Origin: an uncultured Actinomycetes bacterium | Lineage (GTDB): Bacteria > Actinomycetota > Actinomycetes > Streptosporangiales > Streptosporangiaceae | Reading direction: 5' to 3' | Assembly (NCBI GenBank): GCA_963774825.1 | Contig: CAVZGW010000006.1 | Location: 66,124 to 130,123, forward strand | DNA length: 64,000 bases | Part shown: one piece after another, positions 1 through 48,215 of the stretch | Layout of the letters: each line of letters begins with the position of its first letter | Position numbering within the stretch: position 1 is the first letter of the stretch | The notes under the pieces: generated by a model | What the model saw: the letters and a program-made list of their open reading frames with translations, nothing else | What the model was told of the DNA's origin: nothing | The model's database searches: none | Program-made: the position numbers and the translations under genes

Positions 1-29
1 TCCTTTTCCACAGAATTGGGCTTTTCCTC

Positions 30-212
30 ATGATCTACGTTCTAATCGGCGTGTTCTATAACACAGCGTCCCCCCATTTGCCGACGTTCGCATTCAGTCT
101 GGCCGTGCTTCATAGCTGGATTCAGTACTTCATCTCGATCCTCTTCTGGCCGCTGAGCTTCTGGCATCCCATCTTCTCAGTCGCTAAATGGCCGGCCGGG
201 TCGACGAAATAA
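30..212 (+). CDS. small hydrophobic ORF (hypothetical) in low-GC window edge
   Basis: 60-aa ORF with hydrophobic stretches (VLIGVFYN, FISILFWPLSFW). Local base composition is visibly AT-richer than the rest of the window. No family recognised. Confidence 0.2.
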   Translation: MIYVLIGVFYNTASPHLPTFAFSLAVLHSWIQYFISILFWPLSFWHPIFSVAKWPAGSTK

Positions 213-711
213 GACTCGCAACGGGAATCAAGTCACGCCAGACGGGGCCTGATTGCTGCCACTCAAGCCCGTGACGTAGTACGCGCTCGGAGAGCTCGAA
301 GCTCGGGGAAAGTCGGCAGGCGATCACATTGCACGAACAGAACCTGGCGGAATCGGTGCGCCGGACACTGCTGCGGCTGAACGGGAGGGCCAGGTTGAGC
401 CTTGTCCCTATCGCCAGGGTAAGTCTGCCTGGTCTGGTGGCAGGCGGCTGACACGGCCCCCTGGAACCAAGAGACCGTGGCCTGACCCTGAGCAACAGTC
501 GCTGGGTTCCTGAGTTTGGCGATGGTTGCCAGCCGACCCGATTCCGCCTGGACCAGGGCCTGTGATTGCCATGGACGAGATCTCCCGGCTGTGGGCCACG
601 TTCAGCACCGGGTACCGCATCTCGGCAGGCTACGACGATGCCCTACGACTGACCCTGGTCATCACTGCAGCTCACAGGCCAGGCAGACTTCTGGCACCCC
701 ACAGGCTGGGC

Positions 712-874
712 GAGGGCCCCACAGGAAGCCCACAGACGAAACGGAACTATACGGGTACTTGGCGGCACGGTCGCTATGATTGCCATAAGGCTGGCTGACC
801 AGCGACAATGCGGGTGAGCTGGGCTTTTGAATGCTCTTCGAACTACGGTTACAGGGGCGATAGAACCCCTGAAC
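712..874 (+). repeat. Phe-module copy 1: truncated copy of the conserved noncoding arm, broken inside the anticodon loop
   Basis: Aligns with 7570-7728 and 36095-36253 (ccacaggaagcccacagacgaaacggaactata...gagctgggcttttgaatgctc...gatagaacccctgaa). Homology stops after cccctgaa, so the tRNA-derived 3' part is missing. Confidence 0.6.
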
Positions 875-1188
875 TGCGTTCATGATGCTGGCAACTGTGC
901 AGGTCCACCACCAAATCGACTATTCGAGCGGCACAGGATGAGGCGTCGGTCGATGGCCGGGAATATGGTGATGAACAACCAGCCGCCGAGCCGGGTGTTC
1001 GCGAACGCCTGTGCGGCCTTGTCGAGTCGCGTCTTGTCCCGTTGTGCTCGGAATCCTTGTTCCACCCGCCCGACGCTACGAGGCGGTTCGGGCGCTTTGC
1101 GCCGCCACCGAGCCGCGCCGATCCGGCGAGATTGCGCTGGGGTGTGCCTGGGGCGTGTGGTCAGGGCCTTCAAACGGCCGCACGATTA

Positions 1189-1962
1189 TTAAGCGAGGAG
1201 CTTGCCCCAGGTTGGCGGGCCGATCACTCCGTCCGCGGTCAGGCCGTTGTTTGCCTGGAACTGGCGGACCCTGGTATCGGTCTGGGGGCCGAAGGCTCCG
1301 TCACATGCTAGCCCGAGGCTGTGTGAGTGGACGTTGAGCAGGGATTGGGCGAGCTGGACGTATGGTCCTGTTGCGGGCTGTGCGAGCGTGGGGACGCTGA
1401 TTGCCACTGGAACCTCTGTAAACGTAGTTGGCGGCTGATGTCCTGAGACGTTATCGAGCCAGTGCTTTGACCAGACATCGCGGTCAAACAGTCCGGCATT
1501 CTCATACTGGACGCCTATGATCGGGAAGGGGCCAGTTGCGGCTTCTACCATGGTGGCAGCAACGGATTCGCTTAGGCCCCAGTGAGCGACACATAGCCCG
1601 ATCCCGCTGGTGATACCGCCGCTAACCAGCGCGTTGACTACGTTGGTCACGTTGCTCTGGCTCGTGTAGATCGCGGGTGATCGCTGGCCTGGCCGCTTGT
1701 CCGACTTGAACGAGGAGAGTGCCTTTGCTGCCCAGGCAGGGCATTCTGCCGGTGTGGCAGCTCCGCTCTCTACGTCGAGGTAATCGGCCGTGGTATCGCT
1801 GGCCGCGGCGTCCTGGTCGATTCGCACGGCTCCGGGATGGCGGGCCCAATCTGCGGTAGTCCAGGCGATGTCGGGAGAGCCAGTAGTGTATCCGGCTGCC
1901 TGGCCGTGCGGTAGGGCGTTGATGTTCTGATGAGTTGCATCGGCACCTGTTACGGTTGCCAT
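1189..1962 (-). CDS. putative cell-wall hydrolase with C-terminal peptidoglycan-binding (PG_binding_1) domain
   Basis: C-terminus DGAFGPQTDTRVRQFQANNGLTADGVIGPPTWGKLL is a classic PG_binding_1 repeat. The N-terminal ~190 aa resemble glycoside-hydrolase-like lysin domains. GGAGAGGA RBS lies upstream of the ATG. Confidence 0.6.
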   Translation of the reverse strand: MATVTGADATHQNINALPHGQAAGYTTGSPDIAWTTADWARHPGAVRIDQDAAASDTTADYLDVESGAATPAECPAWAAKALSSFKSDKRPGQRSPAIYTSQSNVTNVVNALVSGGITSGIGLCVAHWGLSESVAATMVEAATGPFPIIGVQYENAGLFDRDVWSKHWLDNVSGHQPPTTFTEVPVAISVPTLAQPATGPYVQLAQSLLNVHSHSLGLACDGAFGPQTDTRVRQFQANNGLTADGVIGPPTWGKLLA

Positions 1963-2038
1963 GGTCTTAGTCCTCTCCGTGAGCCGCCCGGTTCGCTGGA
2001 TGCTACGATGCTTTTGCTTCCGGGATCATTATAGTGCC

Positions 2039-2067
2039 GGAGGCTTATTCGTGAGCCTCCTTTTCTT
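2039..2067 (+). terminator. intrinsic-terminator-like hairpin (orphan)
   Basis: GGAGGCT-TATTCGTG-AGCCTCC followed by TTTTCTT on the plus strand. No plus-strand gene ends here. On the minus strand a TATAAT box (2028-2033) lies just downstream of it, ahead of the 1189-1962 gene. Confidence 0.3.
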
Positions 2068-2174
2068 ATGTTCACTGCGGGCGCGCCGCGCGCTTTGTTA
2101 TCTACATTTCCACAGATTTATCTGTTGATTTCCGCGTGACGGCGGGTCGCGCTGGAAACAAGAACGGTTCCTGC

Positions 2175-2640
2175 TATGGAATCTCGTGCTGCGAAACACA
2201 GGGATACCGTGCCGAGAAACTGTTCACGTCATGGGACCTGCCGGTATTAGTGGATAAGGCATCTGGTGATCGGGGACGTCGGTGGTGATGTCGTAGTGGC
2301 CGCGGCCCATTGGGTTCGGCACGGAGGCATGACCGGCGGCGAGAATCCGCGCTGAGCGGTGCAAATTCAGTCGGCGCATCGGCCCCGGCCGGGCTTTGAG
2401 CCGCCCGTGGTCTGCTTCGATCGGGTTGTTCGCGTACTGCCCGACGGCGTGCAGCGCTGAGAGCGACCAGCTCGTCAGGCACCCGCGGGTAGGCGGGCGC
2501 GCGGTCGGTCGTAACTTCGACCAGGACCGTGCCCGCGCGCGGCGCCCGGGTGAAGAAGCGCCGGGCGGCCGCCAGGTCACGGCGCACTGACAGCAGGACG
2601 TCGATTGACCTGGCCATGCTGATCGACCGCACGTTACAGC
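2175..2640 (-). pseudogene. IS6-family transposase remnant (N-terminally truncated, frameshifted)
   Basis: NNPIEADHGRLKARPGPMRRL..HRSARILAAGHA...RGHYDI plus upstream VDVLLSVRRDLAAARRFFTRA in another frame. IS6-like terminal sequence lies near 2175-2200. Confidence 0.7.
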
Positions 2641-2713
2641 ACGCCGCGCCTGGGCCTCGCCTGAGGTAAGCCCCCCTCGGGGTCGCGGGGGCGCTCCATC
2701 TCGGAGGCCAGAG

Positions 2714-2900
2714 ATGTTTCTGCGGCATCCCGGCCGGGTGCTCAGCCGGGAACAATTGCTCAGCCGTGCCCGGCGCTATGACTACGACCCGGCGTCCAAT
2801 GTTGTCGAGGTATACGTCCGTTACCTGCGGAACAAGATCGGCCGACACTGGATCAGCACCATCCGCGGGGCAGGCCACCGGCTCGTCAAGGCGCAAGTCC
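2714..2900 (+). pseudogene. OmpR-family response regulator, C-terminal winged-helix fragment only
   Basis: RVLSREQLLSRARRYDYDPASNVVEVYVRYLRNKIG....IRGAGHRL matches the Trans_reg_C consensus. No receiver domain lies upstream. Confidence 0.6.
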
Positions 2901-3189
2901 AGGGCCAGGGCGGAGGAAACTGCGCCCAGCTAGTGCCCGGGTTGCCCACGGATCGCGGTCGCTGACGGCGCCGGCGGTCATGCCGTGGAAGATCGTTCAT
3001 CCGGTTGTCCGGTGCGTCGGGCTGGCTCCCGAACCGCCTGCCGACCGCGTCAGTGGTCTGGCTTTATATCGATGTGCCAGCCCGCCGGGTCCCGCCGCGG
3101 TGTGGCTCGAAAGAGGAACGAGCGCGAGCACCGTAATTAGGCATGCCCGCCGCGGTCCGTCTTGCCCGGAACGAGGACTGGAGGTGCTG

Positions 3190-3641
3190 GTGACAGCGGT
3201 GATGATCGGCGTGGACCCGCATAAGGGATCACACACGGCGGTGGCGATCGGCGCGGCGGAGGAGCCGCTCGGCAGGTTGCGGGTACCGCACCGATCGAGG
3301 TCTCTTCCGGCAACCGCAAGATCTACCGGCTGTCGCTGAGCGGGAACCGGCGCGTCAATCACGCTATCCACATGGCCGCGATCACCCAGATCCGCCATTC
3401 CCACAGTCAGGGCCGCGCCCATTACGACAAGAAGCTAGCCGAGGGCAAGACGCATAAAGAGGCTCTCCGGTCCCTCAAGCGGCGGATCAGCGACGCCATC
3501 TACGCCCGCCTTCGCACCGACGACCGCCAGTCCGCCAGCAGCGCGAACGAGGGCCCGGGAGGGCAACCGGGGAAAGACACTGACTCCAGCGCGGCCGGCT
3601 CACACCGCAACCGCGCCACCTGGCGGACCCCGGATCGGTGA
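3190..3641 (+). pseudogene. IS110-family transposase remnant with large internal deletion
   Basis: N-terminal IGVDPHKGSHTAVAI is joined almost directly to C-terminal NRRVNHAIHMAAITQIRHSHSQGRAHYDKKLAEGKTHKEALRSLKRRISDAIYARL. Confidence 0.7.
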
Positions 3642-5678
3642 GGGCGCGTGAGTGCTCAGGGTTAGATGCCGCAGTTGCCGTAGTAGTTGTTGGCGTCGAA
3701 TTGATCGATGCGGAAGGCCGGCGGGATTCGTGTGACCCCCGCCGCCGGTCCACTGCCAGGCCATTTCACAGTCCGGCGGGCCGTTGCCGAAGAAGCTGGA
3801 GCTGATGCCGTCCACCGACCAGCCGGTCGGGAACGCGGAGATCGACGAGACGCCGCCTTCGAATGTCCACTCCGGGAGGGAGGTGTCCTCGCCGGTGAAG
3901 ATGCCACTCCACTCGTAGGCACCGTCACCGCCAGCGCTGTACACTCCCGCGTACGCGGTGATGCTGGTGTCGTTATTGACGTAGTCCGCGAAGCCGTTGA
4001 CTGTAGCGAGGTCTACGCTCGGCGCGATGTGAGGCGTGCCGGTCCCGCCGCAGACCTTGGTCCAGACGGTATTCCAGCCGTTATCCAGTTCATTGTCATG
4101 GGTGTACTGCTCGACATCCATGAAGATGAAGTCCAGCTCGTCACTCCCGGATTTCGTCACGGCCTCTTCCGCCTGGTCCCGTCCCCAGGTCGTCGCCTCC
4201 GACGTCGTCCCGCTGTAACGGGGATCACGGCCGGGACCGGCCATCATCCAGTAACCCGACGCGCCGACGCCGTCAACGTAGTTGTCATAGTCGGTGTTAG
4301 CGTCGTTGTAGTCGGTCTGGTTCCAGGCCAGGCCATTGGAGTCGCAGCCCCGCCAGACGTCCCATTTACCGATCTCGCCCATATAGCCGCCGTACTGGCC
4401 GTCGGTGCTGGCGCAGGGATTCGCGGACGACGAGGACGCCTCCAGGTAGGGCGCGGAGCCGCAGGCCATCGTGGCCGGGCCGTCGGTGCCGTACCAGAAG
4501 CCGGACGGCGAGTCGCCGGCGGGCGTGATGCCGGTGGCTGCGCTGGCGTCTGCCGGCTTCAGCGCGCGGCCGGCCAGTGACCGGGTCCGGCTCGCCGAGC
4601 CCGCCGGCAGGTACGGCAGGGTCCGCAGAGCCCCGCAGGCCGCTACCGGATGTGCGAGGGTTATCGTCCGCCCGGCCCCCAGGGCTATCTCTGACGGGTA
4701 GACAGTCACCGAGGCCGCCGCGCGGCACGCGCGGCTGGCGGTGGCCGGTGCCAGCAGCACTATCGGGGTCCACTTGCCGGGCCGCAGGGTCAGCACGGTC
4801 GGCTCGGCACCCGCGTGCCGGTAGGTGGTCAGCGCGGCAGTCATCGACCGCAGCGCCGGGGCGTACTCGAACCTCTTGGCTACCGGGCTGGCGCCGCCGG
4901 ACAGGTGCAGCCGCACCGTCGGCCAGCCGCCGGAGGCCAGCGCGCAGGCCCGCCCGGTGGTGCCCAGCCCGAGCGTGATGATCGAGCCGCCGGCGGTCCG
5001 GGATACGGCGGCGGATTCCCGCACCGCAAGGGCCGCTGCCATGCAGGCCGCGGGTTCCGGCGCGGTCGTGGTCCGGAACGGCGACGGGTCAGCCGACACG
5101 CCCAGGGCCCGCACCGCGGCCTGCAGTGAGGTCATCGGGTAGAACGGCGCGACCGAAAGCTGCCCGCCTAAGCACACGCCGCTCAGCCCGGCCGGCTGGC
5201 CGGCGACTACCCGATGTCCGGCCAGGTTCAGCGCGACCGACCAGGCGGTGGCGCACCCGCGCGCCCCGCCGGGGCCGGTCACCGTGAGCACGGCGTTTCC
5301 GCCCGGACGCAGCGTCACCCGGCGGTCCGGCACCGGCCCGAGGTTGTTGAACGCCACGTCGGTGACCTTGGCGATGACGGCCCGGCCGCCGGACCGCAGG
5401 ACCGTGAGGGCTGGCCAGCCGCGCAGCGAGCACACCGCGGTGCCCGCATTGCTCAGCACCACGTTCAGGACGATCTGTCCCTGCTCACCTGCCGGGTCAC
5501 CCGGGATGCCGGACCGGACGCTGGCCCGCAGCGCTCTTGCCGCGCACGGCCCGGTGGCCTGGCCCGAGCCCGAGGCCAGCGGCTGGGCCGACGCCGTTCC
5601 CGCCGTAGGGCCGACGGCGATCACGGCGGCCGCCGCCGTCAGCAGCGCGCCGGGCGGTCCCGATTTCCTGTTGAACAT
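3600..5678 (-). CDS. secreted protein: signal peptide, 2-3 DUF4232-like repeats, C-terminal DUF1906-like glycoside-hydrolase-like domain; probable frameshift near 3' end
   Basis: Signal peptide: LLTAAAAVIAVGPTAGTASAQP. DUF4232-type units: C..ALRASV...VLNVVLSNAGTAVCSLRGWPAL and C.AAALAV...ITLGLGTTGRACALASGGWPTV. C-terminal domain: GYMGEIGKW...GYWMMAGPGRDP...FIFMDVEQ. An overlapping frame ends ...IDQFDANNYYGNCGI at 3662, so the true stop may be 3662. Confidence 0.65.
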   Translation of the reverse strand: MFNRKSGPPGALLTAAAAVIAVGPTAGTASAQPLASGSGQATGPCAARALRASVRSGIPGDPAGEQGQIVLNVVLSNAGTAVCSLRGWPALTVLRSGGRAVIAKVTDVAFNNLGPVPDRRVTLRPGGNAVLTVTGPGGARGCATAWSVALNLAGHRVVAGQPAGLSGVCLGGQLSVAPFYPMTSLQAAVRALGVSADPSPFRTTTAPEPAACMAAALAVRESAAVSRTAGGSIITLGLGTTGRACALASGGWPTVRLHLSGGASPVAKRFEYAPALRSMTAALTTYRHAGAEPTVLTLRPGKWTPIVLLAPATASRACRAAASVTVYPSEIALGAGRTITLAHPVAACGALRTLPYLPAGSASRTRSLAGRALKPADASAATGITPAGDSPSGFWYGTDGPATMACGSAPYLEASSSSANPCASTDGQYGGYMGEIGKWDVWRGCDSNGLAWNQTDYNDANTDYDNYVDGVGASGYWMMAGPGRDPRYSGTTSEATTWGRDQAEEAVTKSGSDELDFIFMDVEQYTHDNELDNGWNTVWTKVCGGTGTPHIAPSVDLATVNGFADYVNNDTSITAYAGVYSAGGDGAYEWSGIFTGEDTSLPEWTFEGGVSSISAFPTGWSVDGISSSFFGNGPPDCEMAWQWTGGGGHTNPAGLPHRSIRRQQLLRQLRHLTLSTHAPSPIRGPPGGAVAV

Positions 5679-5954
5679 GCGCCATGTCTCCTTTGCCTGA
5701 CTGGCCCTGGCCTTTCACCGGGGTAGGTGCATACCGCCGAGCCCCCGCAATAGAAAGCGCCCCTGAACTGGGACGATAAGAGTGCTTGTAACTGGTCAGG
5801 TGCCCCCGGCGCGGCGGCGCTGCATGACGTTCTTCGGTGGTGTTGACACTCGGCCAATCGTGAATGACGGCGGTAATGGATCTACGTCCCGTAGTTCCCG
5901 AGCCTGCCTGGTGATCATGATAGCCCTGGCGATGAGGTACTCGCTGCGCTTGTC

Positions 5955-6130
5955 ATGTCGCTGCGCGGAGCTCTGGCGCCGGCGCTGGAGGCGCAGGCAC
6001 GGGAGCGGATCGCGGAGCTTGCGGCGCGGCTGGGGAGGACGTCGCGGAACTCCGGTAAGCCGCCGTCGCCGGACGGACGGGGCAAGCCGCCGCCCAGGAC
6101 CAGGCCGGGCAGACCCGAGTCAACCATCCG
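5955..6130 (+). pseudogene. IS66-family transposase N-terminal fragment
   Basis: LEAQARERIAELAARLGRTSRNSGKPPSPDGRGKPPP resembles the IS66 TnpC N-terminal coiled-coil / NSSKPPSSD segment. Nothing follows it. Confidence 0.5.
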
Positions 6131-6754
6131 CCGGCACCTGAGCAGTTGCCGAGGGACGCTGTACGACAGGTCGACTGGATTCTGCGGAGGACTATCCCTC
6201 ATATTAAACGTTACTGCCGCTAGCTCGACACCATCTACCAGAAGTGAGGCACGCATAACTCTTCGGCCGCTGGCCATTCCGAACTCAAACGGCTGAGCAA
6301 ACGGGAACCGTGACTCGACCACTCCGCAGCTGGCCCTCGCGGCATCAGCGAATAAATGGCTTCCGCTATGAAACCGGCTCCGGCAGCGTCGTGCCGAATT
6401 CGCCACCATGAACGCTTCTGCTTTCATGAAGCGCCAGCCTAGTCCCTAGGCGGGCCGGGTCGAAGGCGGATAGTGGATAGCTCTATTTCTGGTCGAACAG
6501 TGGGGTTTCAGGATCAGGTTTTCCAGTCATGGCAGGGCCGCTGGCACGGCGTCGTAACCCGGTGGAGGCCAACGCGAGGCCGGTGGCATCCGGTGCCTGC
6601 CCGTTTCCTGGCTCACAACATCCCGCATGCAGTCGTTGAGGCGTCAGGGTTGCGTCCGTAACAGTCCGGGTGAGCCGGCAGTCTGCTGCGATGGCGGGTG
6701 GGTCGCTATGCGGCGACTTGCAGATGCAATCCCACTGGCGGTACGATTACGGTC

Positions 6755-6997
6755 ATGGTTGCCGAGTACGCGAAGGTGTCCGTCACGCTTCCGGCCGGGC
6801 TGCTGGAGAGGATCCGTGGCCGGGTCGGCGCCCGGGGCCTGTCCGGTTATGTCGCTGAGGCGCTTGAGGCCGAGGAGCGGCGAAGCGCCCTGCGGGCCTG
6901 GCTGGCGGCGCAGGACAACGAATACGGGCCTGTCCCGGCGAGCGTGCTGGAGGAGGTCAGTAACGAATGGCTCGGCGCCGGGAGCGGAGACAGCTGA
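6755..6997 (+). CDS. type II antitoxin (ribbon-helix-helix type), partner of the PIN toxin
   Basis: MVAEYAKVSVTLPAGLLERIRGRVGARGLSGYVAEALE is an RHH-like N-terminus. It overlaps the downstream PIN gene. Start chosen at the in-frame ATG at 6755. Confidence 0.65.
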   Translation: MVAEYAKVSVTLPAGLLERIRGRVGARGLSGYVAEALEAEERRSALRAWLAAQDNEYGPVPASVLEEVSNEWLGAGSGDS

Positions 6998-7389
6998 TCC
7001 TGCCGGACGCTGTACTTCTCGACTCTGAGGGGCTCAGTGCCGCTGCGGCCGGTTCCGCGCGGGTTCGCGCCGAACTGATCCTTGCCGAGCGTCTGGGCGC
7101 GAGCGTACATGTCAGCGCGGTCACGCTTGCCGAGACACTGCGAGGCGGCCCGCGAGACGCCCGCGTGCACAGCCTGCTGAAGAGCGCTGTTCAGCGCCAT
7201 GTCACGCCCGAGTTGGGCAAAGCCGCAGGGGAGTTGCTCGGACGGACGGGCCGGGCCGACACCGTCGACGCCATCGTCGCGGCGACGGCCAGCGGACTCG
7301 GCCAGCGGGTGCGCATCCTCACTAGCGACCCTCGCGATCTCCGGGCGCTGACGGCAGAGATGGACGCAGTAACAGTGGTCGCGGTGTGA
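6967..7389 (+). CDS. vapC: PIN-domain toxin (VapC-like)
   Basis: LLDSEGLSA...VSAVTLAETLRG...DAIVAATASGLGQRVRILTSDPRDL follows the typical PIN acidic-residue pattern. It overlaps the antitoxin by about 30 nt. Confidence 0.75.
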   Translation: MARRRERRQLILPDAVLLDSEGLSAAAAGSARVRAELILAERLGASVHVSAVTLAETLRGGPRDARVHSLLKSAVQRHVTPELGKAAGELLGRTGRADTVDAIVAATASGLGQRVRILTSDPRDLRALTAEMDAVTVVAV

Positions 7390-7450
7390 CCGCACGGGCT
7401 AACACAAAGGCAACACAAGTCCGGCCGCGCGGGCGGTGAGAACAAACCTT

Positions 7451-7722
7451 ACGTGAACGCAGCGCCAGGGCCCTCAGCCGTCCGGCAGCTGGATCCGAGA
7501 CCTGCCAGCTCCCGGCCGGGTGCTACCGCGAGGCCCACAATTTCCCCACAAGTCCGCGGCCGGGCGAAGGCCCCCACAGGAAGCCCACAGACGAAACGGA
7601 ACTATGCGGTACTTGGCGGCACGGTCGCTATGATGGCTATAAGGCTGGCTGACCAGCGGCAATGCGGGTGAGCTGGGCTTTTGAATGCTCTCCGGACTAT
7701 GGTTTCAGGGGTGATAGAACCT
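7451..7722 (+). repeat. Phe-module copy 2: conserved noncoding arm with four direct CCCACA motifs
   Basis: Collinear with 35975-36247 and in part with 712-874. CCCACA occurs at 7534, 7545, 7573 and 7584. No conserved reading frame (indels between copies). Confidence 0.65.
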
Positions 7723-7764
7723 CTGAAAAGCGGAAGGCCGGCGGTTCGACCCCGTCCCTGACCA
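7723..7764 (+). other. tRNA-Phe(GAA) 3' half (anticodon loop to discriminator), att-core-like
   Basis: CTGAAAA / GCGGA / AGGCC / GGCGG-TTCGACC-CCGTC / CCTGACC / A corresponds to anticodon loop with GAA, 3' anticodon stem, variable loop, T arm, 3' acceptor strand and discriminator. No matching 5' half lies upstream. Confidence 0.75.
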
Positions 7765-8233
7765 CGCGTTTTGTGACTTCAGGCCAGCAATCGCTTGTGG
7801 GCCTTTGTGGGGATCTTGTGCTTCGTCGGCATCGGCCCGGGATCCCTGTCTTCCTGATTTTCTCGCAGGTGATAGGGCTATCTTTCCTTATACGACTCGC
7901 GGCGGCCGCTGCATGCCGGAGGCATGACCGTGCGACATTGAAGCGGAAGGTCAAAACAAAGGCTGACAAACGGCTGCGAGGCGCGGTTTGAGGGCTTCCG
8001 AGCCCGACTGGCCCGCGGAGTGCCGCGGCTGCGCCGGCCTGGCTGGAATACTCGAAGGCGGTTTGCATCCGACCGCGGTGAACAACGGCTGGGCACCGCC
8101 ACGAACGTGGTGATCACGACACGCTCGGCTCCGCGAACTGGAGCGGAAGACAGGGCTCCCCGCAGATCAGGGGGTCGGCAAAGTCTTCGGGTGGCGTTGG
8201 TTCGGGCGACACGCCGGTGATGAGCAGGTAGGA

Positions 8234-8915
8234 GTGCGGGCCACGGCCCTTGTGGTGATCATGGCGGTTGCTGAGACCTGCCGATCATTCCCGAAGGACC
8301 ATGCCCGCCTCGTCATCATCACCGATTCATCTTGTCCTCGGCCACCTTGCTGACCTCGCAGGTGCTGCCGCCGAAGATTCGCGCGGCCTGCTGGCGGTGC
8401 TGGCCAGGGCCGCTGATCCCCGGTCCCGGCGGGGGTGCGCCACCGGCTGGCGGTGCGAAGGCCATGGAAGCGGTGAAGATCCTGGAACGCAGCCGCGAGG
8501 GACTCTCCGGCGTAAGAGGGCGCGGAACGTTCAGATGGTGGCGGCGGGAACTGGGGAGGCCCTCCCCGGCCGGAGCGTGCTGCGGGCTGGCGCGGAAGAC
8601 GCCGTCTTATAACCGGTCTGGAGCCGGGAAGTGGGCGGTGGCCGGGAGGGAGTCGGAGGCGGCCGTAGTACCGGTCGGACCCGCAGGACAGCACAACCTG
8701 CGGGGAGGGAAGGGCCGCTGCTTCGTTCGCGCGCGAGCTGGGAGCTACTTACTGGTGAGTGCCGGTGTCACGGCTAGGTCAGCCCTGGCGGCTGTCGGAG
8801 GCGACAGAGTCAGAGCGTTGCAGCATGCGCTTTACCGGGCGGCCAAGGCTGATCCGGACCGACAGTTCCATGCGCTGTTCGACAAGGACATCCGCAGGGA
8901 CGTGCTTGGACACTG
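8234..8915 (+). mobile_element. group II intron 5' fragment (GUGCG start, domains I-III, first ~45 codons of the RT)
   Basis: GTGCGGGCC at 8234. RT N-terminus: GGKGRCF...RVRALQHALYRAAKADPDRQFHALFDKDIRRDVL. It is truncated where the minus-strand recombinase fragment begins. Confidence 0.55.
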
Positions 8916-9290
8916 CGGCCTTGCAGCCGGGCGACGCGATCCAGCGTGGCGTCCCGCTGGTGGCCATGGTCTTGCCGAACACCGCGCGGCCGGCGTAGGC
9001 GGGGTTGCGCAGCATCGCCCGTACCACGCTGCGGTCCCAGCGGTTCTTGCCGGTGCGGGTAGGTGCGCCCTGGCCGGTGAGCCAGCGGGCCAGATCCGCG
9101 ATGGAGGCGCCGTCGTCGGCGTAGCGGCGGAACATCTCCGCCACCAGCGCCGCCTAGTCCTCCGCGATCTCGTAGCCAGCCCCGGCCAGGTCGGTCTTGC
9201 GCACGTACCGGTAGCCGAACGGCGCGCCGGACAGCACACTGACCGACCCGGTGCGGGCGCGGTGCGCCTTGCCGCGTCGCGAGCGAGCGA
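8916..9290 (-). pseudogene. large serine recombinase internal fragment with in-frame TAG
   Basis: VLSGAPFGYRYVRKTDLAGAGYEIAED*AALVAEMFRRYADDGASIADLARWLTGQGAPTRTGKNRWDRSVVRAMLRNPAYAGRAVFGKT. The stop is at 9154-9156. Confidence 0.7.
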
Positions 9291-9299
9291 CTGGTGCGC

Positions 9300-9371
9300 G
9301 CGACCTGGGTGCTGGTCAGGCGCGACGGCGGCTGGCGCATCGCCTCCTACCACAACAGCCCCGCCAGCTAA
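9300..9371 (+). pseudogene. NTF2/SnoaL-like protein, last ~23 codons only
   Basis: WVLVRRDGGWRIASYHNSPAS-stop is typical of the C-terminal strand of DUF4440/SnoaL-like proteins. Confidence 0.4.
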
Positions 9372-9521
9372 GGCGCAGTCTTCCGGGTACGGGGCGCCTC
9401 CCTTCCGGGGGAACCGCCCCGTACCCGGATCCAACCGGGTTCCAGGGCCGTGGCAGCGGTTGTCGCAGTCGTGATCGCCCAGGTAAAACGGTACGGCATG
9501 GTGGGCTGAACGGAAGGAGCC

Positions 9522-9887
9522 TTGACGATGACGCTGTATGTGGCCTTGTGCTACTACGACCGGGACCACCACTGGGACTCGGTGCCGGATATGGAGTTCA
9601 CCCCCGAGTACACGGAGTTCGCCCGGCGGGCTACCGAGGCCGGGGTCATGCGCGGCGGTGAAGCCCTGCACCCGGTGACCATGTCGACCACCATCACCGT
9701 CTCGGGCGGCAAGGGCGGCGACGTCCTGGTGGTCGACGGTCCTTACGCTGAGGCGAAGGAGGTCTTGGCCGGGTACTTCCTGCTGGAGGCGGCCGACCTG
9801 GACGAGGCCATCGCGTGGGCGGCGCAGATCCCGGCTGCCTGGCGGGGGAAGATCGAGCTTCGCCCGGTAGCGCCGGCCCACGCCTAG
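9522..9887 (+). CDS. YciI-family (DGPF) protein
   Basis: VVDGPYAEAKEVLAGYFLLEAADLDEAIAWAAQIPAAWRGKIELRPV. It has the usual position upstream of an ECF-type sigma factor. Confidence 0.85.
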   Translation: MTMTLYVALCYYDRDHHWDSVPDMEFTPEYTEFARRATEAGVMRGGEALHPVTMSTTITVSGGKGGDVLVVDGPYAEAKEVLAGYFLLEAADLDEAIAWAAQIPAAWRGKIELRPVAPAHA

Positions 9888-9897
9888 GCACCCTGGT

Positions 9898-11160
9898 ATG
9901 GACGCCACCGGCACTCTGGTGGAGGTGCTGAAGGGCGAAGGTCCCAGGGTGCTGGCGACGCTGGCCAGGACCATCGGCGACCTGGCCGTAGCCGAGGACG
10001 CGCTCTCCGAGGCCACGATCACCGCCCTGGATGCCTGGCCCAGAACGGGGATCCCCGACAACCCGCGGGCCTGGCTGGCGGTGGTCGCCCGCCGCAAGGC
10101 GCTTGACCTGCTGCGACGCGAGTCAGCCCGGGCGGCCAAGGAGGCCGCCGCGTTCCGGTGGGGAACCGGGGCCGCACCGGACCAGATCGAGGAGGCGATC
10201 GAGGCAATGGAGCCAGAAACGTCTCTGCGCGACGACATGCTGCGCCTGATCTTCACCTGCTGCCACCCGGCGCTTGGCCGTGAGGCCCAGGTGGCCCTCT
10301 CGCTGCGCACGCTGGCCCGCCTCGAGGTGCCGGCCATCGCCCGCGCCTTCCTGGTGCCTGAGGCCACCATGGCCAAGCGCCTGGTACGGGCCCGCTCCAA
10401 GATCGCCACGGCCCGCATCCCCTACGCGATCCCCGCCGACACCGAGCTTCCCGGCCGGCTGGCAGCAGTGCTGGCCGTGGTGTACCTGATCGCCACCGAG
10501 GCCCACGCCCCGACCGGCGGGCACGCGGTGGCCCGGGCCGATCTCGAGGCCGAGGCGATCCGGCTAGCTCGCTTGCTGGCCAGCCTGATGCCCGACGAGC
10601 CCGAGGCGCTCTCCCTGCTTGCCCTGTTGCTGCTGACCTCGGCCCGCACCGCCGCCCGCACCGATGCCGACGGTAACCCGGTGACCCTGGCCGACCAGGA
10701 CCGCACCCGCTGGAACCGAGCCGCGATCGACGAAGGTTCGGCGTGGCTGTCCGATGCGGTGACCCGGTCCGGCGGGGTCGCCGGGCCCTATCAGATCCAG
10801 GCTCACCTCGCCGCGGCCCACTCGACCGCTCTCAGCTGGCAGGAGACGGACTGGGACCGGATCGTCGGCCTCTACGACTTGTTCGGGTCGATCACGGCCA
10901 GCCCGGTGGTGGCGCTCAACCGGGCGGTCGCGGTTACCGAGCGCGACGGCCCCGAAGCGGGGCTGGCTGCCCTGAAGACCATCGCCGGCCTGGAGTACTC
11001 CCATCTGTGGCACGCTGCCCTGGCGGACAACCTGTGCCGGCTCGGCCGCACGAGCGACGCGGCCGGAGAACTTCACGCCGCGGTGACCCTGGCGCCCAGC
11101 GAGGTCGAACAGCGCCTCCTGCAGGGCCGTCTGCGCAAGGTGCGGTCCGAGCTCGGCTGA
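9898..11160 (+). CDS. ECF-type RNA polymerase sigma factor with long C-terminal helical-repeat extension
   Basis: Sigma region 2: AWLAVVARRKALDLLRRE. Region 4: LRTLARLEVPAIARAFLVPEATMAKRLVRARSKI. It also has a ~230-aa C-terminal domain. The YciI-sigma gene pair is well known. Confidence 0.85.
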   Translation: MDATGTLVEVLKGEGPRVLATLARTIGDLAVAEDALSEATITALDAWPRTGIPDNPRAWLAVVARRKALDLLRRESARAAKEAAAFRWGTGAAPDQIEEAIEAMEPETSLRDDMLRLIFTCCHPALGREAQVALSLRTLARLEVPAIARAFLVPEATMAKRLVRARSKIATARIPYAIPADTELPGRLAAVLAVVYLIATEAHAPTGGHAVARADLEAEAIRLARLLASLMPDEPEALSLLALLLLTSARTAARTDADGNPVTLADQDRTRWNRAAIDEGSAWLSDAVTRSGGVAGPYQIQAHLAAAHSTALSWQETDWDRIVGLYDLFGSITASPVVALNRAVAVTERDGPEAGLAALKTIAGLEYSHLWHAALADNLCRLGRTSDAAGELHAAVTLAPSEVEQRLLQGRLRKVRSELG

Positions 11161-11290
11161 CCGCGTTCTGGTTTTCTCGCTTTCCTTGCCTGGCTTCTCC
11201 CCGCATATGTCCTGCGCCCGCTTCACCGTTCGTCCTTTCCACGCAAGAGCGGTCCCCGATCTCGCGGATCGCCCAGGGAAGGAGAAGCAG

Positions 11291-12642
<1,352 letters not shown>

Positions 12643-14075: not shown

Positions 14076-15321
14076 CTAATTGCGCAGTGGCCCGAGGCCC
14101 GCGCGGACCTCTGCCGCGAAGACCTGCGGTTGTTCCCACGCCGCGAAGTGCCCGCCTTTGTCGGGCTTGTTGTAATAGATGAGGTTGTGGTCGGCCTGCT
14201 GCGTCCAGCTCTGCGGGGCCTGGTAGTTCTCGCCGGGGAAGGCGCTCACGGCCGCCGGGACGGAAACTTCGGCGGCGTTGTAGAGGCCGAGCTTGTTCTC
14301 CCAGTACAGGCGAGCCGAGGAGACCGCAGTGTTGGTCAGCCAGTAGAGCGTGATGTTGTCCAGGACGTCGTCTCGGGTGAGGTCGCCCGCGGGTGTCCGT
14401 GGCTGGTGTGGCCGAGCACGGCCGAGGTGACCGGCGCCGCTGGCTGGCCACAGCCGTCGCCGTGGTCAAGCAGCCAGGCGGCGAGGCCGACGGGCGAGTC
14501 CGCTAGTCCGTACAGCGTCTGCGGGCGCGTGCCCATCATGCTGGCGTAGGCGCGCTGCTTCGCATACAAGATGGTCAGCTGCTCGTAGGCGTGCCTCTCG
14601 TCCTCTGACAGACCGGATGGCGGCGGGTCGCCGGACTGCAGTGCCTTGGTCACGTCGGGCGGAACCGTGCCGGGGAAGTTGACATGTATGCCGAGCAACT
14701 CCGGAGGCGCCTGGCGTCCCATGACGTTCGCGACGGCCCCGCCCCAATCGCCGCCTTGCGCCGCGAATCGCCGGTAGCCGAGGCGCTTCATCAGCACGAC
14801 CCAGCCCCCGGGCGATGCGTTCGGGATCCCATCCGGTGTCTTTCGGCTTGGCTGAATACCCGTAGCCCGGCAGCGACGGGATCAGCAGTGGAACGCGTCC
14901 GATGCGCTCGCGCCGTGGGTGGTGGGGTTGGTGAGTGGGCCGATGATCTTGAGCTGCTCGATGATCGAGCCGGGCCACCCGTGCGTGACGACGTGACGAT
15001 GAGTGGCAGCGCCACCCGCGTGCTGCGAGCGAACGTGGATGAAGTGGATGTCGAGCCCGTCAATCTCGGTCACGAACTGCGGCAGGGCGCTCAGCTTCGC
15101 CTCGCATGCGCGCCAGTCGTGATCCCTGGCCCAGTGGGCCGCGAGATCCTGGAGCATCGCCAGGGGGACGCCTTGCGAATCATCGGCGACAGTTCCCTCT
15201 CCGGCCAGCATGTGGCGGCGATACGCGCACGCAGCTCGTCGAGTTCCGCGTCGGCCACCGTGGGGATCGTAAACGGGCGGATCGCTGTCCCGCCCGCCGG
15301 GTCTTCGGCCGTGCCAGACAT
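14076..15321 (-). pseudogene. microsomal-type epoxide hydrolase, at least 3 frameshifts
   Basis: Pieces lie in three frames: IRPFTIPTVADAELDELRARIAATCWPEREL / LPQFVTEIDGLDIHFIHVRSQH..THGWPGS / [16 protein letters not shown]...[21 protein letters not shown] / GGHFAAWEQPQVFAAEVRAGLGPLRN-stop. Confidence 0.8.
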
Positions 15322-17433: not shown

Positions 17434-17904
17434 GCCGTGCCTCCCTCGGAATCCGGCAGCGGGCCGGATGCCATGTGCGGACCCGCCCACAGTCGCCGAC
17501 GCGGCGAGCCCGCCGAACCGGTCATACTCACTGGTCGTTTCTGGGCCGTGCGCTGGGCCGCGAAAAGGATCTTGAACTGTTTGGCTGCCACGCCCCATAC
17601 GGGAGGGGCGGCAGAAAAACTACGAGCCGTCCCGCACAAAGGGGAGCGAGACATACGGCAGGCTCAGAAGCGGCGCAGGCGAAGATCAGGTGAGACAGAT
17701 CTTCCAGACGGAAGGTTGGGACTCATCAACTGCCGACTCGGCTGCGCTCCTTAACCACGGCGCTGACTGCTCCGCCGTCCTGGCCGATCCTGAGTCGGCG
17801 ACCTACCACCGTGTCAGATGGAGTGACTGTTAACGGTCCGTGACTGGCCGCGGGGTGACAGGCGGACCGCCCACGGCGGCCGCGCTGAGGACGCGTTCCA
17901 CCTC

Positions 17905-18165
17905 GTGCTGCCGTCGATCCCCGGCTACGGGTTCTCCGACGAGCCGACCGAACTCGGCTGGGGCCCCATCCGTATCGGACAGGCGTGGGCGGAGCTAATG
18001 CGGCGCCTGGGTTATACCCGGTACGTCGCGCAGGGGGGCGACGTGGGCTCCCAGGTCACCGACGCGATGGGCCGCCTGGCACTCGACAGGCTGATCGGCA
18101 TTCACACCAACCTTCTCACGCCGGCGCTGGGCGATGCCGGGGCCCTGAGCCAGGGTCCGGGGTGA
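17905..18165 (+). pseudogene. epoxide hydrolase internal fragment (third paralog)
   Basis: LPSIPGYGFSDEPTELGWGPIRIGQAWAELMRRLGYTRYVAQGGDVGSQVTDAM...IGIHTNL aligns with the middle of the 57321-58548 copy. Confidence 0.7.
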
Positions 18166-18169
18166 CGCC

Positions 18170-20127: not shown

Positions 20128-20274
20128 GCGATCATCCTACCCTAGTAGTTCATACCATGGTCGCAACGTAGCAAGTAGCCGCGGTCAGGTACGTCCGGGC
20201 CGGCGTGGCGGCCGTATATCGCATGGGTGCCGGATCGAGCCTGGGTGCAGCACCAGAGTGCAGCAGCCGGGTTC

Positions 20275-20400
20275 GCTAACGCGTTCGAGGATTCGAACAA
20301 ACAAAGATCTCGTGGTTCCGTGGGAGGCAAAATGGGAGCCATGAACCACACCACTGGGGACAATTCCAGACCACTCAGGACCACGTGTCCGCAGGTCAGC
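20275..20400 (+). repeat. Phe-module leader copy (hairpin plus ~100 nt ending in the tRNA 5' acceptor strand GGTCAGC), truncated by IS701 remnant
   Basis: Aligns with 47751-47875 (gcgttcgaggat[tc]cgaa...atgggagccat.gaccacacc.ctgggga...ttccagaccactcaggacc...gcaggtcagc). Homology ends at 20400. Confidence 0.6.
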
Positions 20401-20459
20401 GAGATACCACCGGCGCTGGACACCCGGGCCGGTCCCGCTGTCCCGGCTGATCGCCATCG

Positions 20460-28640: not shown

Positions 28641-28649
28641 CCCTGGAAA

Positions 28650-35434: not shown

Positions 35435-35920
35435 CCCGCTATGCTAGCAAACGTGGCGTTTTCGGCACAACGTCGCGCTGGCTAAAATGCCGGGCCAAGC
35501 GGTCGATGTCGGCCAGGTCGGTGTCCTCGCGCCACTCGTCAACGTGCTATTCGCAGTCTGGAGATAGTCTCGATCCCTCACGCCAGGTCCCCGGCGTGTG
35601 CTACCGCAAACTAGGCACGCCGGTGACGGGCTAAGCGATGGCATGCATCTGGCCGGGCAGTCCGAAGGCATGGCGGCGCTGGGGCGGCTGAGTCTGGACG
35701 GTGTCGAGCTTGACACGGGACCATCCGTACCCGCAGCGCGACCGCGGCCGCATCAGCGCCTGGATCGCCGTGGAAGACTGGCACGGCTGGGGCGCCCTAA
35801 AAGACAACAGCAGCCAGCCGGGCTAGCGAACGGTTGAGCACCTCAGCAATTTGGCGCGAGCCCGAACTGGATGTTCTGCGCGCAGCCCCAAGGCTCATCA
35901 CATGCGCTCACGGACGGCAC

Positions 35921-36289
35921 TAAATGGGCGATCTGCGCTAGGGGCCGATTCCACATGCAAGGTCAGCTGGTCACGATACGTGAACGCAGCCACTGGGCCG
36001 TCGGCCGTCCGGCAGGTGGATCGTAGATTGCCAGCGCCCGGCCGCGTGCTACCTCGAGGCCCACAATTTACCCACAAGTCCGCGGTCGGGCGCAGCCCCC
36101 GCAGGAAGCCGACAGACGAAACGGAACTATACGGTACTCGGCGGCACGGTCGCCATAATGGCTACAAGACCGGCTGGCCAGCGACAATGCGGATGAGCTG
36201 GGCTTTTAAATGCTCGTCGAACTATGGTTTCAATGGTGATAGGACCCCTGAAAAGCGGAAGGTCGGCGGTTCGACCCGCCCCTTGGTCA
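35921..36289 (+). repeat. Phe-module copy 3 (most complete): leader remnant, GGTCAGC acceptor strand, ~280-nt arm, tRNA-Phe 3' half
   Basis: GGTCAGC at 35961. The arm is collinear with 7451-7722. 36248-36289 reads CTGAAAA-GCGGA-AGGTC-GGCGG-TTCGAC-CCGCC-CCTTGGTCA (3' acceptor strand mutated). The 3' end overlaps the stop codon of the S9 peptidase gene. Confidence 0.65.
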
Positions 36290-38233
36290 AGCCGGTGATC
36301 CTCGGCCATCGGACGCTTCATCGCGAAGCCACCGGTCGAACCATGCACGCGTGCGCCGGAGCAGGTCGAGCTGGTGATTGCGCTCCGCGAATCCGTGTCC
36401 CTCACGCGGGTAGATGACGAGTTCGTGCTCGGCCCCGTACCAGCTGAGCGCGCGGTGGAAGTAGATCGCCTGGCTGACCGGCACGTTGGTGTCGTCCTCG
36501 CCGTGCACGATCAGCACCGGGGTGCGGATCTTCGACGCAAACGAGATCGGGCTCACTTGGTCGTGCGGGTGCGGGCCGCTGCCCTCCCAGCCGCAACTGC
36601 CGCTGAGCTCAGCTTCTAGAGTTCCCCCTTCGCCGGTCGCGACGAGCATCCCCCAGTCACTGATCCCGGCGACCATCATGGCGGCCTTGAACCGGTCGGT
36701 CTGCCCGATCGCCCAGGCTGCCATGAACCCGCCATGGCTGGCACCGCCGATTCCAAGCCGGTCCGGGTCCGCGACCCCCTCGGCAATCAGCAGGTCGATC
36801 CCGCTGATGATGTCGCTCCATTCGCTGCCGCCGACCGAGCGCGCGACCGTCGCCGCGAAATCACGGCCATGACCCACCCCGCCCCGCGGGTTAGGCAGGA
36901 ACACGGCGTATCCCGCAGTCGCGAGCCACTGTCCCGTAGGATGCGGGGCGAGCATGAACTCGTCGGCATACCGGGCATCAGGGCCGCCGTGCACCAATGT
37001 GATGAGCGGGAACGGGCCGTCCGCGCGGTTGCGGCCGGGCGGCAATACGAGCAGGCCGTCGAGGCCGAGGCCGTCCGATGCCCGATAGGACAGGCGTTCT
37101 TGGCTTCCCCATCTGATCGCGCGCAGGGCAGGCCGGGTGTCACTGAGCCGGATGAGCTGGCCTCCGGGCGGTCCGGCATGGACGTTCACCGGCTCATAGG
37201 AGGTACTGGCCAGCGCCGCGATCACCTCGCCGGAACGACACGCGGTGAGCGAGTCCGCCAGGCCATCCCGAGCGGACACGCACCCGAACCGCAGCAGGTC
37301 AGGGTCGAGCCGGTAGATCGCGGTGTCGAGCCCGTCCGCGAACAAGGCCAGCGGCGGGCCGTTCGCGACCTGCGCCAGCTCCGTCGGGCAGACAGCCATG
37401 CCCGCGGTCAGGTCACGATGCACAGCGGCAGCCGCGGAGACGGCGACATCGCAGACGGCGTCGCCGCCGAACGGCTCGGGCATTGCCAGGTAGGCCAGGT
37501 GCCAGCAGCCGTCGGCCTGCCACCAGACCGGTGACCGCGCCTCGGTCCCGATCCGGCCCAGATCACGGGCCGTCTTGGTCTCCAGATCGACCACATGCAA
37601 CTCGCCGGTGTTCACGCCCCGATCCTTCTCCGGACCCGCCCAGCTGATCGCCGCCAGCGCGCCCCCGTCCGGCCGCGCCGCCAGCTCCACGACGTGACGG
37701 TCGCCGAGGCCGTCTACCGTACGCAGCTCGCCTGTGGCCAGGTCAAGCACCCGCAGCCTGCCGCAGCGCAGCTGCTGTCCCCAGACGAACGCGTCGTCGC
37801 GCTCGGCGCGCCGGCGCTTGTCCTCCTCGGTTGGCTCGTCCGTGGCCACCACGGCGACCAGCCGGGCACCCGCAAGCGGCCAGGCATCAGAGATCTCGCC
37901 GCGCCAGTCCGTCAGGACCTCGGCCTCCCCGCCACCGATTCGGACCCGGTACAGCTGACGGGAGCCGGTGCGATCCGACAAGAAAAACACCGACGCCGAA
38001 TCCGGCGCCCAGCGCGGATCAGAATCTGCCGCCATACCCGCGGTCAGCTTCCACGGCGGTGAGCTACCGTCAGCAGCGGCCAGCCAGAGCGCGCACATAC
38101 AACGCTCTTCCCCGCGGCCGACCGGAGCGACGACATACGCAACCCAGCACCCATCTGGCGAGATCACCGGCTGCGACGGCACGGCGCCGTCCACCACCAG
38201 CTCCGCGGCTAGCTCCGGTGCGTCTTCGCTCAT
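36287..38233 (-). CDS. S9-family serine peptidase (prolyl oligopeptidase / acylaminoacyl peptidase type)
   Basis: Beta-propeller N-terminal half. Catalytic Ser motif: IGGASHGGFMAAWAI. Later VHGEDDTNVP and the His region YPREGHGF. Start chosen at MSEDAPE. Confidence 0.9.
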   Translation of the reverse strand: MSEDAPELAAELVVDGAVPSQPVISPDGCWVAYVVAPVGRGEERCMCALWLAAADGSSPPWKLTAGMAADSDPRWAPDSASVFFLSDRTGSRQLYRVRIGGGEAEVLTDWRGEISDAWPLAGARLVAVVATDEPTEEDKRRRAERDDAFVWGQQLRCGRLRVLDLATGELRTVDGLGDRHVVELAARPDGGALAAISWAGPEKDRGVNTGELHVVDLETKTARDLGRIGTEARSPVWWQADGCWHLAYLAMPEPFGGDAVCDVAVSAAAAVHRDLTAGMAVCPTELAQVANGPPLALFADGLDTAIYRLDPDLLRFGCVSARDGLADSLTACRSGEVIAALASTSYEPVNVHAGPPGGQLIRLSDTRPALRAIRWGSQERLSYRASDGLGLDGLLVLPPGRNRADGPFPLITLVHGGPDARYADEFMLAPHPTGQWLATAGYAVFLPNPRGGVGHGRDFAATVARSVGGSEWSDIISGIDLLIAEGVADPDRLGIGGASHGGFMAAWAIGQTDRFKAAMMVAGISDWGMLVATGEGGTLEAELSGSCGWEGSGPHPHDQVSPISFASKIRTPVLIVHGEDDTNVPVSQAIYFHRALSWYGAEHELVIYPREGHGFAERNHQLDLLRRTRAWFDRWLRDEASDGRGSPA

Positions 38234-45352: not shown

Positions 45353-45436
45353 CGCCGTCCCCCGCTCCAGCCGGCGCGGCCAGGGCCGGGCCGGCGCTCC
45401 TGGCGATCAGCCGGGCCAGCAACCTGATCGCCGTGG

Positions 45437-47716: not shown

Positions 47717-47750
47717 CCGAAACGTGCCCGCAGCTGCCGGACCTACTCGC

Positions 47751-47868
47751 TAGCGCGTTCGAGGATCCGAATAACAAAAGATCTTGAGGTCGGGGTGGGA
47801 GACTAGATGGGAGCCATCGACCACACCGCTGGGGACTATTCCAGACCACTCAGGACCGTGTTTATGCA
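47751..47868 (+). repeat. Phe-module leader copy (shared with 20275-20393)
   Basis: Begins with the hairpin-forming gcgttcgaggatccgaat, then atgggagccatcgaccacaccgctggggactattccagaccactcaggacc. It starts 35 nt after the mazF stop. Confidence 0.6.
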
Positions 47869-47942
47869 GGTCAGCAACATATCGTCAGGTACTATTTCCC
47901 GCCTGAAAAGCGAAGGTCGGCGGTTCGACCCGCCCCTGACCA
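47869..47942 (+). pseudogene. degenerate tRNA-Phe(GAA)-derived pseudo-tRNA (74 nt)
   Basis: GGTCAGC..CATATCGTCAGGTACTAT..TCCCGC-CTGAAAA-GCGA-AGGTC-GGCGG-TTCGAC-CCGCC-CCTGACC-A. The acceptor (6/7 bp), T stem, variable loop and GAA loop are recognisable. The D stem is lost, the anticodon stem has indels and the T loop is 6 nt. Confidence 0.7.
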
Positions 47943-48215
47943 CGCAGACCTCATTTGACCTGGGGAAACGATGCTCCTATGTTAACGGCCGTTGGCTCCG
48001 CTCATCTGCTGGACCACAGGGAAATATGAGTGTGGCGGTGCGGCGTCCCGACAGCGCGAGCAGTCAGCCGCGGTGGCGTTGGCGTTGGTACGAGCGGCGC
48101 CCTAAGCGCACATTCGGTTGTCGCGACCGATGTTCTGTCCACCGTCACTCTCCGCGCCCGAGCCTGGCGTGCAGGGATCAGCGGCCCGTGGCGTGATTAC
48201 GACAGGCGGTATTAT

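Follow-up and report, generated by a model that had tools for sequence, protein, structure and literature searches.

The window (the whole 64,000-nt stretch analysed here) holds three co-oriented 3' halves of a tRNA-Phe gene, at 7723, 36248 and 47902, each directly behind a longer repeated sequence that we call an arm. There are two different kinds of arm, arm1 and arm2, and two kinds of sequence to the right of the halves, flank A and flank B. Where related contigs or loci have to be told apart, they carry L numbers.

704..873, forward strand: arm1 copy 3, a core fragment only, which diverges after CCCCTGAA and lacks a tRNA half (repeat comparison)
7450..7722, forward strand: arm1 copy 1, a P-type arm, truncated on the left relative to full-length copies and ending at the anticodon-loop junction (homology)
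7531..7592, forward strand: four direct CCCACA(A/G) 9-mers in two pairs, 7534 with 7545 and 7573 with 7584 (motif count)
7593..7722, forward strand: near-invariant arm core with a GCTATGAT -10-like box and a CAGGGG..CCCCTG hairpin abutting the tRNA core (alignments A2-A4)
7723..7764, forward strand: core, the 3' part of tRNA-Phe(GAA) (BLAST, alignment to intact genes)
7765..8043, forward strand: flank A, a P'-type arm also present in L006, L018/L026 and L028; inverted 9/10-mers lie at 7795-7811, and AAGCGGAAGG occurs a second time at 7941-7950 (repeat comparison)
20273..20406, forward strand: arm2 copy 2, without a tRNA half, followed by a putative transposase fragment (repeat comparison)
35860..36247, forward strand: arm1 copy 2, full length, with GATCTGCGC repeats and a hairpin at its left end (repeat comparison)
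36248..36290, forward strand: degenerate tRNA-Phe half with a 6-nt T loop and a mutated acceptor strand (alignment)
47747..47901, forward strand: arm2, immediately before the third half; its two TGGGAGNC motifs are spaced by 12 nt (repeat families D9 and D15)
47902..47943, forward strand: third tRNA-Phe 3' half, with two 1-nt deletions (alignment)
47944..48089, forward strand: flank B, shared with at least five loci in which it follows arm1 and a half (comparison)

A tRNA-Phe 3' half without a 5' half

Positions 7723-7764 read CTGAAAAGCGGAAGGCCGGCGGTTCGACCCCGTCCCTGACCA on the forward strand and correspond to the part of tRNA-Phe(GAA) that runs from its anticodon loop through discriminator A. 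Aligned with the intact tRNA-Phe of the same lineage (L034-L037), the segment is identical at 41 of 43 nt (95.3%), and the identity starts at the anticodon loop (alignment A5), the 33 nt before 7723 being unrelated to the tRNA 5' half. By BLAST, the 43-nt half also matches the attP of Micromonospora rosaria pMR2 and a Nonomuraea tRNA-Phe gene, each at 90.7%, and the annotated tRNA-Phe of mycobacteriophage Peterson at 88.6%. The first-pass annotation, made from the letters alone, had described an actinobacterial tRNA-Phe 3' half with no 5' half before it, to be checked against an intact gene; these matches bear out the identity, and the alignment shows the expected relationship. ARAGORN calls no tRNA at 7723-7764, its only tRNA in the window being tRNA-Gly(CCC) at 59664-59740. 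Neither the window nor the 7.1 kb on its left side yielded an intact tRNA-Phe, no 5' half was found left of any arm copy, and no intron model matched; a group I intron or otherwise interrupted tRNA was rejected because there is no 5' exon at the left boundary.

The degenerate half at 36248-36290 abuts the stop codon of an S9 peptidase gene on the reverse strand (36287-38287). Within flank A, 213 nt downstream, the second AAGCGGAAGG lies inside TGAAGCGGAAGGTC; it matches the start of the tRNA half and may be a degenerate second core.

A long, conserved and non-coding arm upstream of the half

Homology of arm1 begins at 7450 in all comparisons. Positions 7450-7767 are 84-90% identical to 35977-36292, and the fragment at 704-873 has an arm core of ~170 nt in common with the other window copies. 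An earlier description of this DNA as ~270 nt of non-coding sequence recurring at a second and, in part, a third site thus stands for the recurrence (~35860-36247 and 704-873) and falls short on the length, since copy 2 begins near 35860. At full length the arm measures ~330-440 nt, from a left end with the GATCTGCGC repeats and hairpin to a sharp right end in CCCCTGAA, which is the anticodon-loop junction.

Pattern scans of species-representative genomes and metagenomes brought more than 20 homologues of arm1 to light, 83-93% identical to the window copies. The genome scan found them in actinobacterial metagenome-assembled genomes (MAGs), including Streptosporangiaceae MAG L006, L011 (two copies) and L012, and the metagenome scan in 15 contigs. 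One 1.1-Mb MAG contig carries two copies 24.3 kb apart (L008 and L014). On the left, more than 10 contexts have differing DNA next to the arm, and homology ends in them at about the same point. In a BLAST search of phage and plasmid collections the tRNA part alone was matched, and a search of IMG/VR for the arm motif pair returned no match.

Several sequence classes could be set aside for the arm itself. Short open reading frames cross it, but indels between the copies break their frames, so that the arm is non-coding, as had been supposed, and a protein-coding origin was rejected. Rfam scans at gathering and permissive thresholds gave nothing relevant for the arm; the same scan missed the tRNA-Gly at 59664-59740 even at the permissive threshold, so that the lack of tRNA matches in it is uninformative. 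No terminal inverted repeats were found at the arm ends and no target-site duplication in the flanks, both of which would be expected of a MITE or insertion sequence; a MITE was rejected for want of such inverted repeats.

The block at 7587-7680 is near-invariant across all arm copies. In a rival reading, the conserved 160-250 nt would be a small RNA or leader with a tRNA-like 3' end, the attachment-site layout being secondary. In one variant, a promoter could read through the tRNA half into an integrase gene after excision. The invariance of that block with its GCTATGAT -10-like box, and the common orientation of arm, half and integrase gene wherever an integrase is present, would fit such a reading. 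Yet neither an Rfam match nor a sigma-70 consensus match was found, a promoter and terminator scan of 7300-8100 being empty, and the folding energy of the arm is no better than that of shuffled sequences on either strand (z = +0.6 and +1.4). RNAalifold gave a covariation term of -0.24, with 1 of 69 pairs compensatory, on sequences too similar for a fair test. In addition, TTCGAA in the arm core is replaced by TCCGGA, again a palindrome with no loop, and a replacement of this kind suggests DNA sites for proteins, not a helix in RNA. A structured non-coding RNA was rejected as the primary identity on the joint outcome of Rfam, folding and covariation, and the small RNA or leader reading as a whole is very improbable.

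Phased motifs on both sides of the core

A motif count recovered the four forward-strand CCCACA motifs of the first-pass annotation and the two inverted copies that it had placed to the right of the tRNA piece, which read CCCACAR on the reverse strand at 7795-7801 and 7805-7811. The forward motifs are spaced 11 nt within each pair and 39 nt between pairs. Across the window CCCACAR is not enriched (24 observed against 17.4 expected); six copies cluster within 280 nt around the core. The two 9/10-mers on the left recur as perfect inverted copies on the right (AGGCCCACAA with TTGTGGGCCT, and TCCCCACAA with TTGTGGGGA). Motif spacing, which had been put forward as a comparison to make among copies, is conserved: number and spacing do not vary among the copies that cover this stretch of the arm, the diverged L033, L030 and L041 among them, and all four motifs persist in arms that are ~75% identical overall and unrelated further left. 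The conserved number and spacing, together with the inverted copies in flank A, point to a DNA-binding protein, and the phased 9-mers that flank the core are putative sites for an accessory or arm-binding protein.

One breakpoint and many right-hand partners

The arm is joined at one fixed breakpoint to at least five unrelated right-hand partners. Flank A follows it in window copy 1, L006, L018/L026 and L028, and flank B in L008, L015, L021, L020/L023 and L025. Further partners are regions encoding two types of integrase, one XerD-like and the other of 403 aa; the 3' end of the S9 peptidase gene, at window copy 2; and, at four junctions (window copy 3, L011a, L012 and L016/L027), unrelated DNA without a half. 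All of the breaks, those without a half included, fall within CTGAAAAG.

No locus among those compared has flank A adjoining an integrase. Flank B also follows the third window half, there behind the different arm, arm2. Its first ~30 nt resemble the DNA downstream of the Nonomuraea tRNA-Phe, and flank B may for that reason be a chromosomal flank of the tRNA-Phe site. A tblastn search found no integrase similarity in flank B, and its open reading frame is short and variable; the idea that it is the 5' end of an integrase gene was discarded on these grounds. For arm2, a counterpart exists in L017, where TGGGAGNC occurs with the same spacing in the stretch that separates the tRNA half from the start of the gene for the 403-aa integrase. 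This common spacing suggests that arm2 may be the cognate arm of the element family with the 403-aa integrase.

Putative IS110-family transposase genes lie, in opposite orientations, at the anticodon-loop junction in L011 (2560-3737) and L012 (1-915), and insertion sequences of this family may target the att core or its hairpin. Since in both loci they abut the right end of the arm, the arm might itself be the non-coding end of an IS110-family element, where its bridge RNA or seekRNA region would lie, or the preferred target of one. We regard this as the remotest of the readings: only 2 of ~22 distinct copies are concerned, the two genes are opposite relative to the arm, a tRNA half follows the arm in other copies, no transposase adjoins any window copy, and the arm ends without terminal inverted repeats. 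An IS110 left end or bridge RNA was rejected for its inconsistent orientation and rare association.

A VapBC-like pair (6639-7444, with the PIN toxin at 6967-7389) lies to the left of arm1 copy 1 in the window, and in L026/L018 such a pair (L026 890-1694) lies ~470 nt to the right of the unit formed by arm, half and flank A. The two arrangements resemble a circular permutation. They bear on a further possibility, namely that arm, core and flank A make up a self-contained element without an integrase, cis-mobilisable or miniature, that is moved and kept intact in trans by the integrases of resident islands and is more than a scar. Such an element would account for the discrete arm boundaries with unrelated DNA on the left in so many contexts, for the recurrence of arm, half and flank A as a unit in four or five contexts whose outer flanks differ, for a ~1.1-kb segment between two halves in L021 that holds little beyond an arm, and for the changed position of VapBC. 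Movement through the core would, however, split the arms; pairs of empty and filled sites were not found; and the window copies are decayed, with a truncated arm, a degenerate half and a fragment. Moreover, between the window and L026 the arms are 84.5% identical and the VapBC pairs 95.7%, an inequality that argues against a simple shared unit. We consider the self-contained element unlikely.

Integrase genes behind the arm in related contigs

An integrase that would act on such a site was found in related contigs. Phage_integrase-family genes, as identified by Pfam, start 60-100 nt after arm and half in L014, L017/L024, L030 and L033, which answers the question, raised with the first description of the arm, of what flanks its other copies. 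The gene in L014 starts ~80 nt after arm and half and encodes an N-terminal SAM-like domain; that in L017/L024 is the different, 403-aa type. Homologues of the L014 protein are abundant "XerD-like" recombinases of 310-316 aa, several of them from Streptosporangiaceae MAGs. Arm, half and downstream integrase gene are co-oriented in every such case, and the arm and the integrase diverge in step across L014, L033 and L030. Contigs with the order arm, half, integrase could be excised circles or tandem junctions.

One integrase of this type, P0010 (XerD-like, 316 aa), occurs in two settings. In L033 it sits after a diverged arm and tRNA half, and an identical P0010 directly follows an intact tRNA-Phe in four contigs, L034-L037, the gene order in L036 being tRNA-Asp, tRNA-Phe, P0010. 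Positions 386-520 of L033 are 100% identical to L034-L037, and the sequences part at CTGAAAAGCGG. The occurrence of P0010 in an arm-half form and in an intact-tRNA form is what recombination between attP and attB with a crossover at the anticodon loop predicts. This signature of a tyrosine integrase attachment site, with intact-tRNA and arm forms that switch at the core, was seen in the related loci, not in the window. The first-pass annotation had read the layout as an attachment site of a tyrosine integrase; the Phage_integrase genes behind arm and half, and the two settings of a single integrase allele with their breakpoint at the anticodon loop, both lend support to that reading. In L039/L040 an integrase follows tRNA-Glu, tRNA-Asp and tRNA-Phe; the genes to the left of this tRNA cluster look like ordinary chromosomal genes, and the layout is the native one.

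A related arm with four CCCACA motifs is also present in L041 (9560-10939), followed by a putative tRNA-Thr(UGU) 3' half and then by a 66%-identical integrase. This arrangement suggests that the module of attachment site and integrase has switched its tRNA target.

The elements linked to an integrase encode further proteins: one with DUF2637, from a PHROG family that carries the annotation excisionase, one that is primase/helicase-like and one that is weakly Rep-like. Genes for transfer were not seen in these elements of the related loci. In the integrase that diverges in step with the arm, the SAM-like domain begins ~36 residues into a translated fragment whose start we chose ourselves, and the protein appears, from its translation, to lack an arm-binding domain. 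As there would be no room for an arm-binding domain of the lambda type, an excisionase-like accessory factor is as plausible a candidate as the integrase itself for the binder of CCCACA.

An ambitious combination of these elements would have the arm, core and flank A form a live mini-element lacking an integrase, in several copies per genome, with the near-invariant 160-nt block as an excision-dependent promoter or leader reading through the tRNA half, and with an accessory protein that reads the phased CCCACA 9-mers of both arms and so confers directionality on XerD-like integrases without an arm-binding domain. We hold this to be unlikely.

Recombinases and other cargo in the window

No tyrosine integrase was detected in the window by tblastn with four query integrases (pMR2 Int and three related integrases), which returned nothing below E = 0.1, a negative that covers relatives of those four. 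The earlier statement that the window holds no integrase gene is therefore upheld for tyrosine integrases of this kind, but it does not extend to serine recombinases, of which genes are present at 8779-9153 and 43910-45406. The former, on the reverse strand, is a fragment with a Pfam Recombinase domain. The latter, also on the reverse strand, encodes a Resolvase and a Recombinase domain and appears to be a large serine recombinase gene in complete form; 43126-43941 on the same strand is read as its putative C-terminal continuation. An actinomycete integrative and conjugative element (AICE) of the pSAM2/pMR2 type carries modules for integrase, excisionase, replication and FtsK-like transfer; no homologues of pMR2 Int, Xis or Rep were found in the window, which does not fit that type. 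With no tyrosine integrase, excisionase or AICE-type replication gene detected there, activity cannot be claimed for the window itself.

The arm fragment and the three halves are spaced 6.9, 28.5 and 11.6 kb apart, and the intervals contain toxin-antitoxin modules, IS fragments and pseudogenes, as read from translations of open reading frames; the Pfam check of this cargo covered the PIN, PemK and serine recombinase genes. Other translations in the window include several diverged copies and frameshifted fragments of a putative epoxide-hydrolase-like gene that are 70-85% identical to one another (14082-15190, 57324-58416 and 17866-18414), a putative C-terminal part of a group II intron maturase (29346-29966) and a putative IS5-like transposase segment embedded in a large ATPase/LuxR-type open reading frame (27462-29342).

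Another contig of the same genome, L045, is 99.95% identical to the window over positions 1-11963 and extends 7.1 kb further left, where no tRNA was found. At L045 15953-18860, 4-7 kb to the left of the window start, an IS21 IstB gene accompanies two Phage_integrase genes, one for 226 aa and the other for 393 aa.

A probable attachment-site junction in a proposed array of decayed islands

The reading that best accommodates these observations, and to which we assign a probability of roughly 85%, is that mobile islands integrated site-specifically into a tRNA-Phe gene and left an attachment-site junction at 7450-8043. On this reading it is a junction or remnant in a decayed array, and not demonstrably a live attP. 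In the proposed mechanism, a tyrosine integrase would recombine the attP of an element with the tRNA-Phe gene. In the attP, a core identical to the tRNA 3' part would lie between a long left arm and a right arm, and the crossover would take place in or beside the anticodon loop CTGAAAA, which in the gene is flanked by the inverted repeat of the anticodon stem. The element's copy of the 3' half would restore an intact tRNA at the left end, and at the right end the arm of the element would be followed by the chromosomal 3' half that it displaced. Further rounds of integration into the restored tRNA would stack elements in tandem, so that each internal junction would have the order arm, half, left end of the next element.

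On this mechanism, 7450-8043 would be such an internal junction, composed of the right arm of one element, the displaced half and the left end of the next, and the window would be a decayed tandem array of islands at a single tRNA-Phe gene that have lost their integrases. We infer this tandem history from four co-oriented landmarks: the arm fragment at 704-873; arm, half and flank A at 7450-8043; arm and degenerate half at 35860-36290; and arm2, half and flank B at 47747-48089. An intact tRNA-Phe, which would form the head of this array, was not found in the window or in the adjoining 7.1 kb on the left. Against the junction reading stands the loss of homology to the left of the arm, which is sharper than expected inside a large island; so sharp a boundary leaves room for the self-contained element considered above.

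Comparison with known integration systems

The AICEs pMEA100, pSE211 and pMR2 use tRNA-Phe as their site, integrate by means of a tyrosine integrase and regenerate the tRNA on integration (PMC2440964). The core described here begins, like theirs, in the anticodon loop and comprises the 3' part of tRNA-Phe. The likeness to pMR2 is closest: its attP, matching 7723-7765 at 90.7%, also shares GTGGGGATCTT just right of the core, and pMR2 has the same tRNA-Phe half beside its integrase gene. The gene order differs, however: in pMR2 the integrase gene is on the left side of the core and points toward it, whereas the integrase gene linked to arm1 is on the right side and points away. The arm1-linked protein, a XerD-like integrase of ~315 aa, also has only ~25% identity to pMR2 Int; the left arm, at 330-440 nt, is long; and the window has no pMR2-like Int, Xis or Rep.

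Tandem arrays of islands at one tRNA gene, together with cis-mobilisable elements, have been described as site-specific accretion for integrative and conjugative elements of Streptococcus thermophilus. As in accretion arrays, co-oriented 3' parts of a tRNA separate unrelated cargo in the window, internal junctions resemble attP, and the integrases of older members are lost. It differs from such arrays in that the head, an intact tRNA-Phe, was found neither in the window nor in the 7.1 kb to its left, and in that mobilisation is putative.

The attP of phage lambda and that of mycobacteriophage L5 contain arm-type and excisionase sites, and an N-terminal arm-binding domain of the integrase reads sites of this sort. 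The window resembles these attP sites in having short repeats about one helical turn apart on the P arm and inverted copies on the P' arm, here flank A. It departs from them in that the co-diverging integrase seems to have no N-terminal arm-binding domain and in that the CCCACA sites are putative.

Implications

The tRNA-gene integration scar of a tyrosine integrase is a well-known type of site in actinobacteria, of which the window provides an example without the integrase, and the general understanding of site-specific recombination is unchanged by it. What the analysis raises is a narrow question, how a long, motif-rich arm is used by an integrase that seems to have no arm-binding domain. 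Any remaining novelty turns on whether a unit of arm, core and arm without an integrase can still be mobilised, and on how it would be read.

For the organism, the landmarks indicate that decayed integrative islands have piled up at a tRNA-Phe site over at least 704-47943; such a pile-up would account for the dense occurrence of toxin-antitoxin modules, IS fragments and pseudogenes in this region. For the wider group, they define an uncharacterised family of attachment sites and integrases in Streptosporangiaceae-like actinobacteria of soil and peat, comprising a ~315-aa XerD-like integrase and a 330-440-nt arm, that seems to have been retargeted at least once to another tRNA. The set of arm, core and integrase is a candidate integration tool for high-GC actinobacteria.
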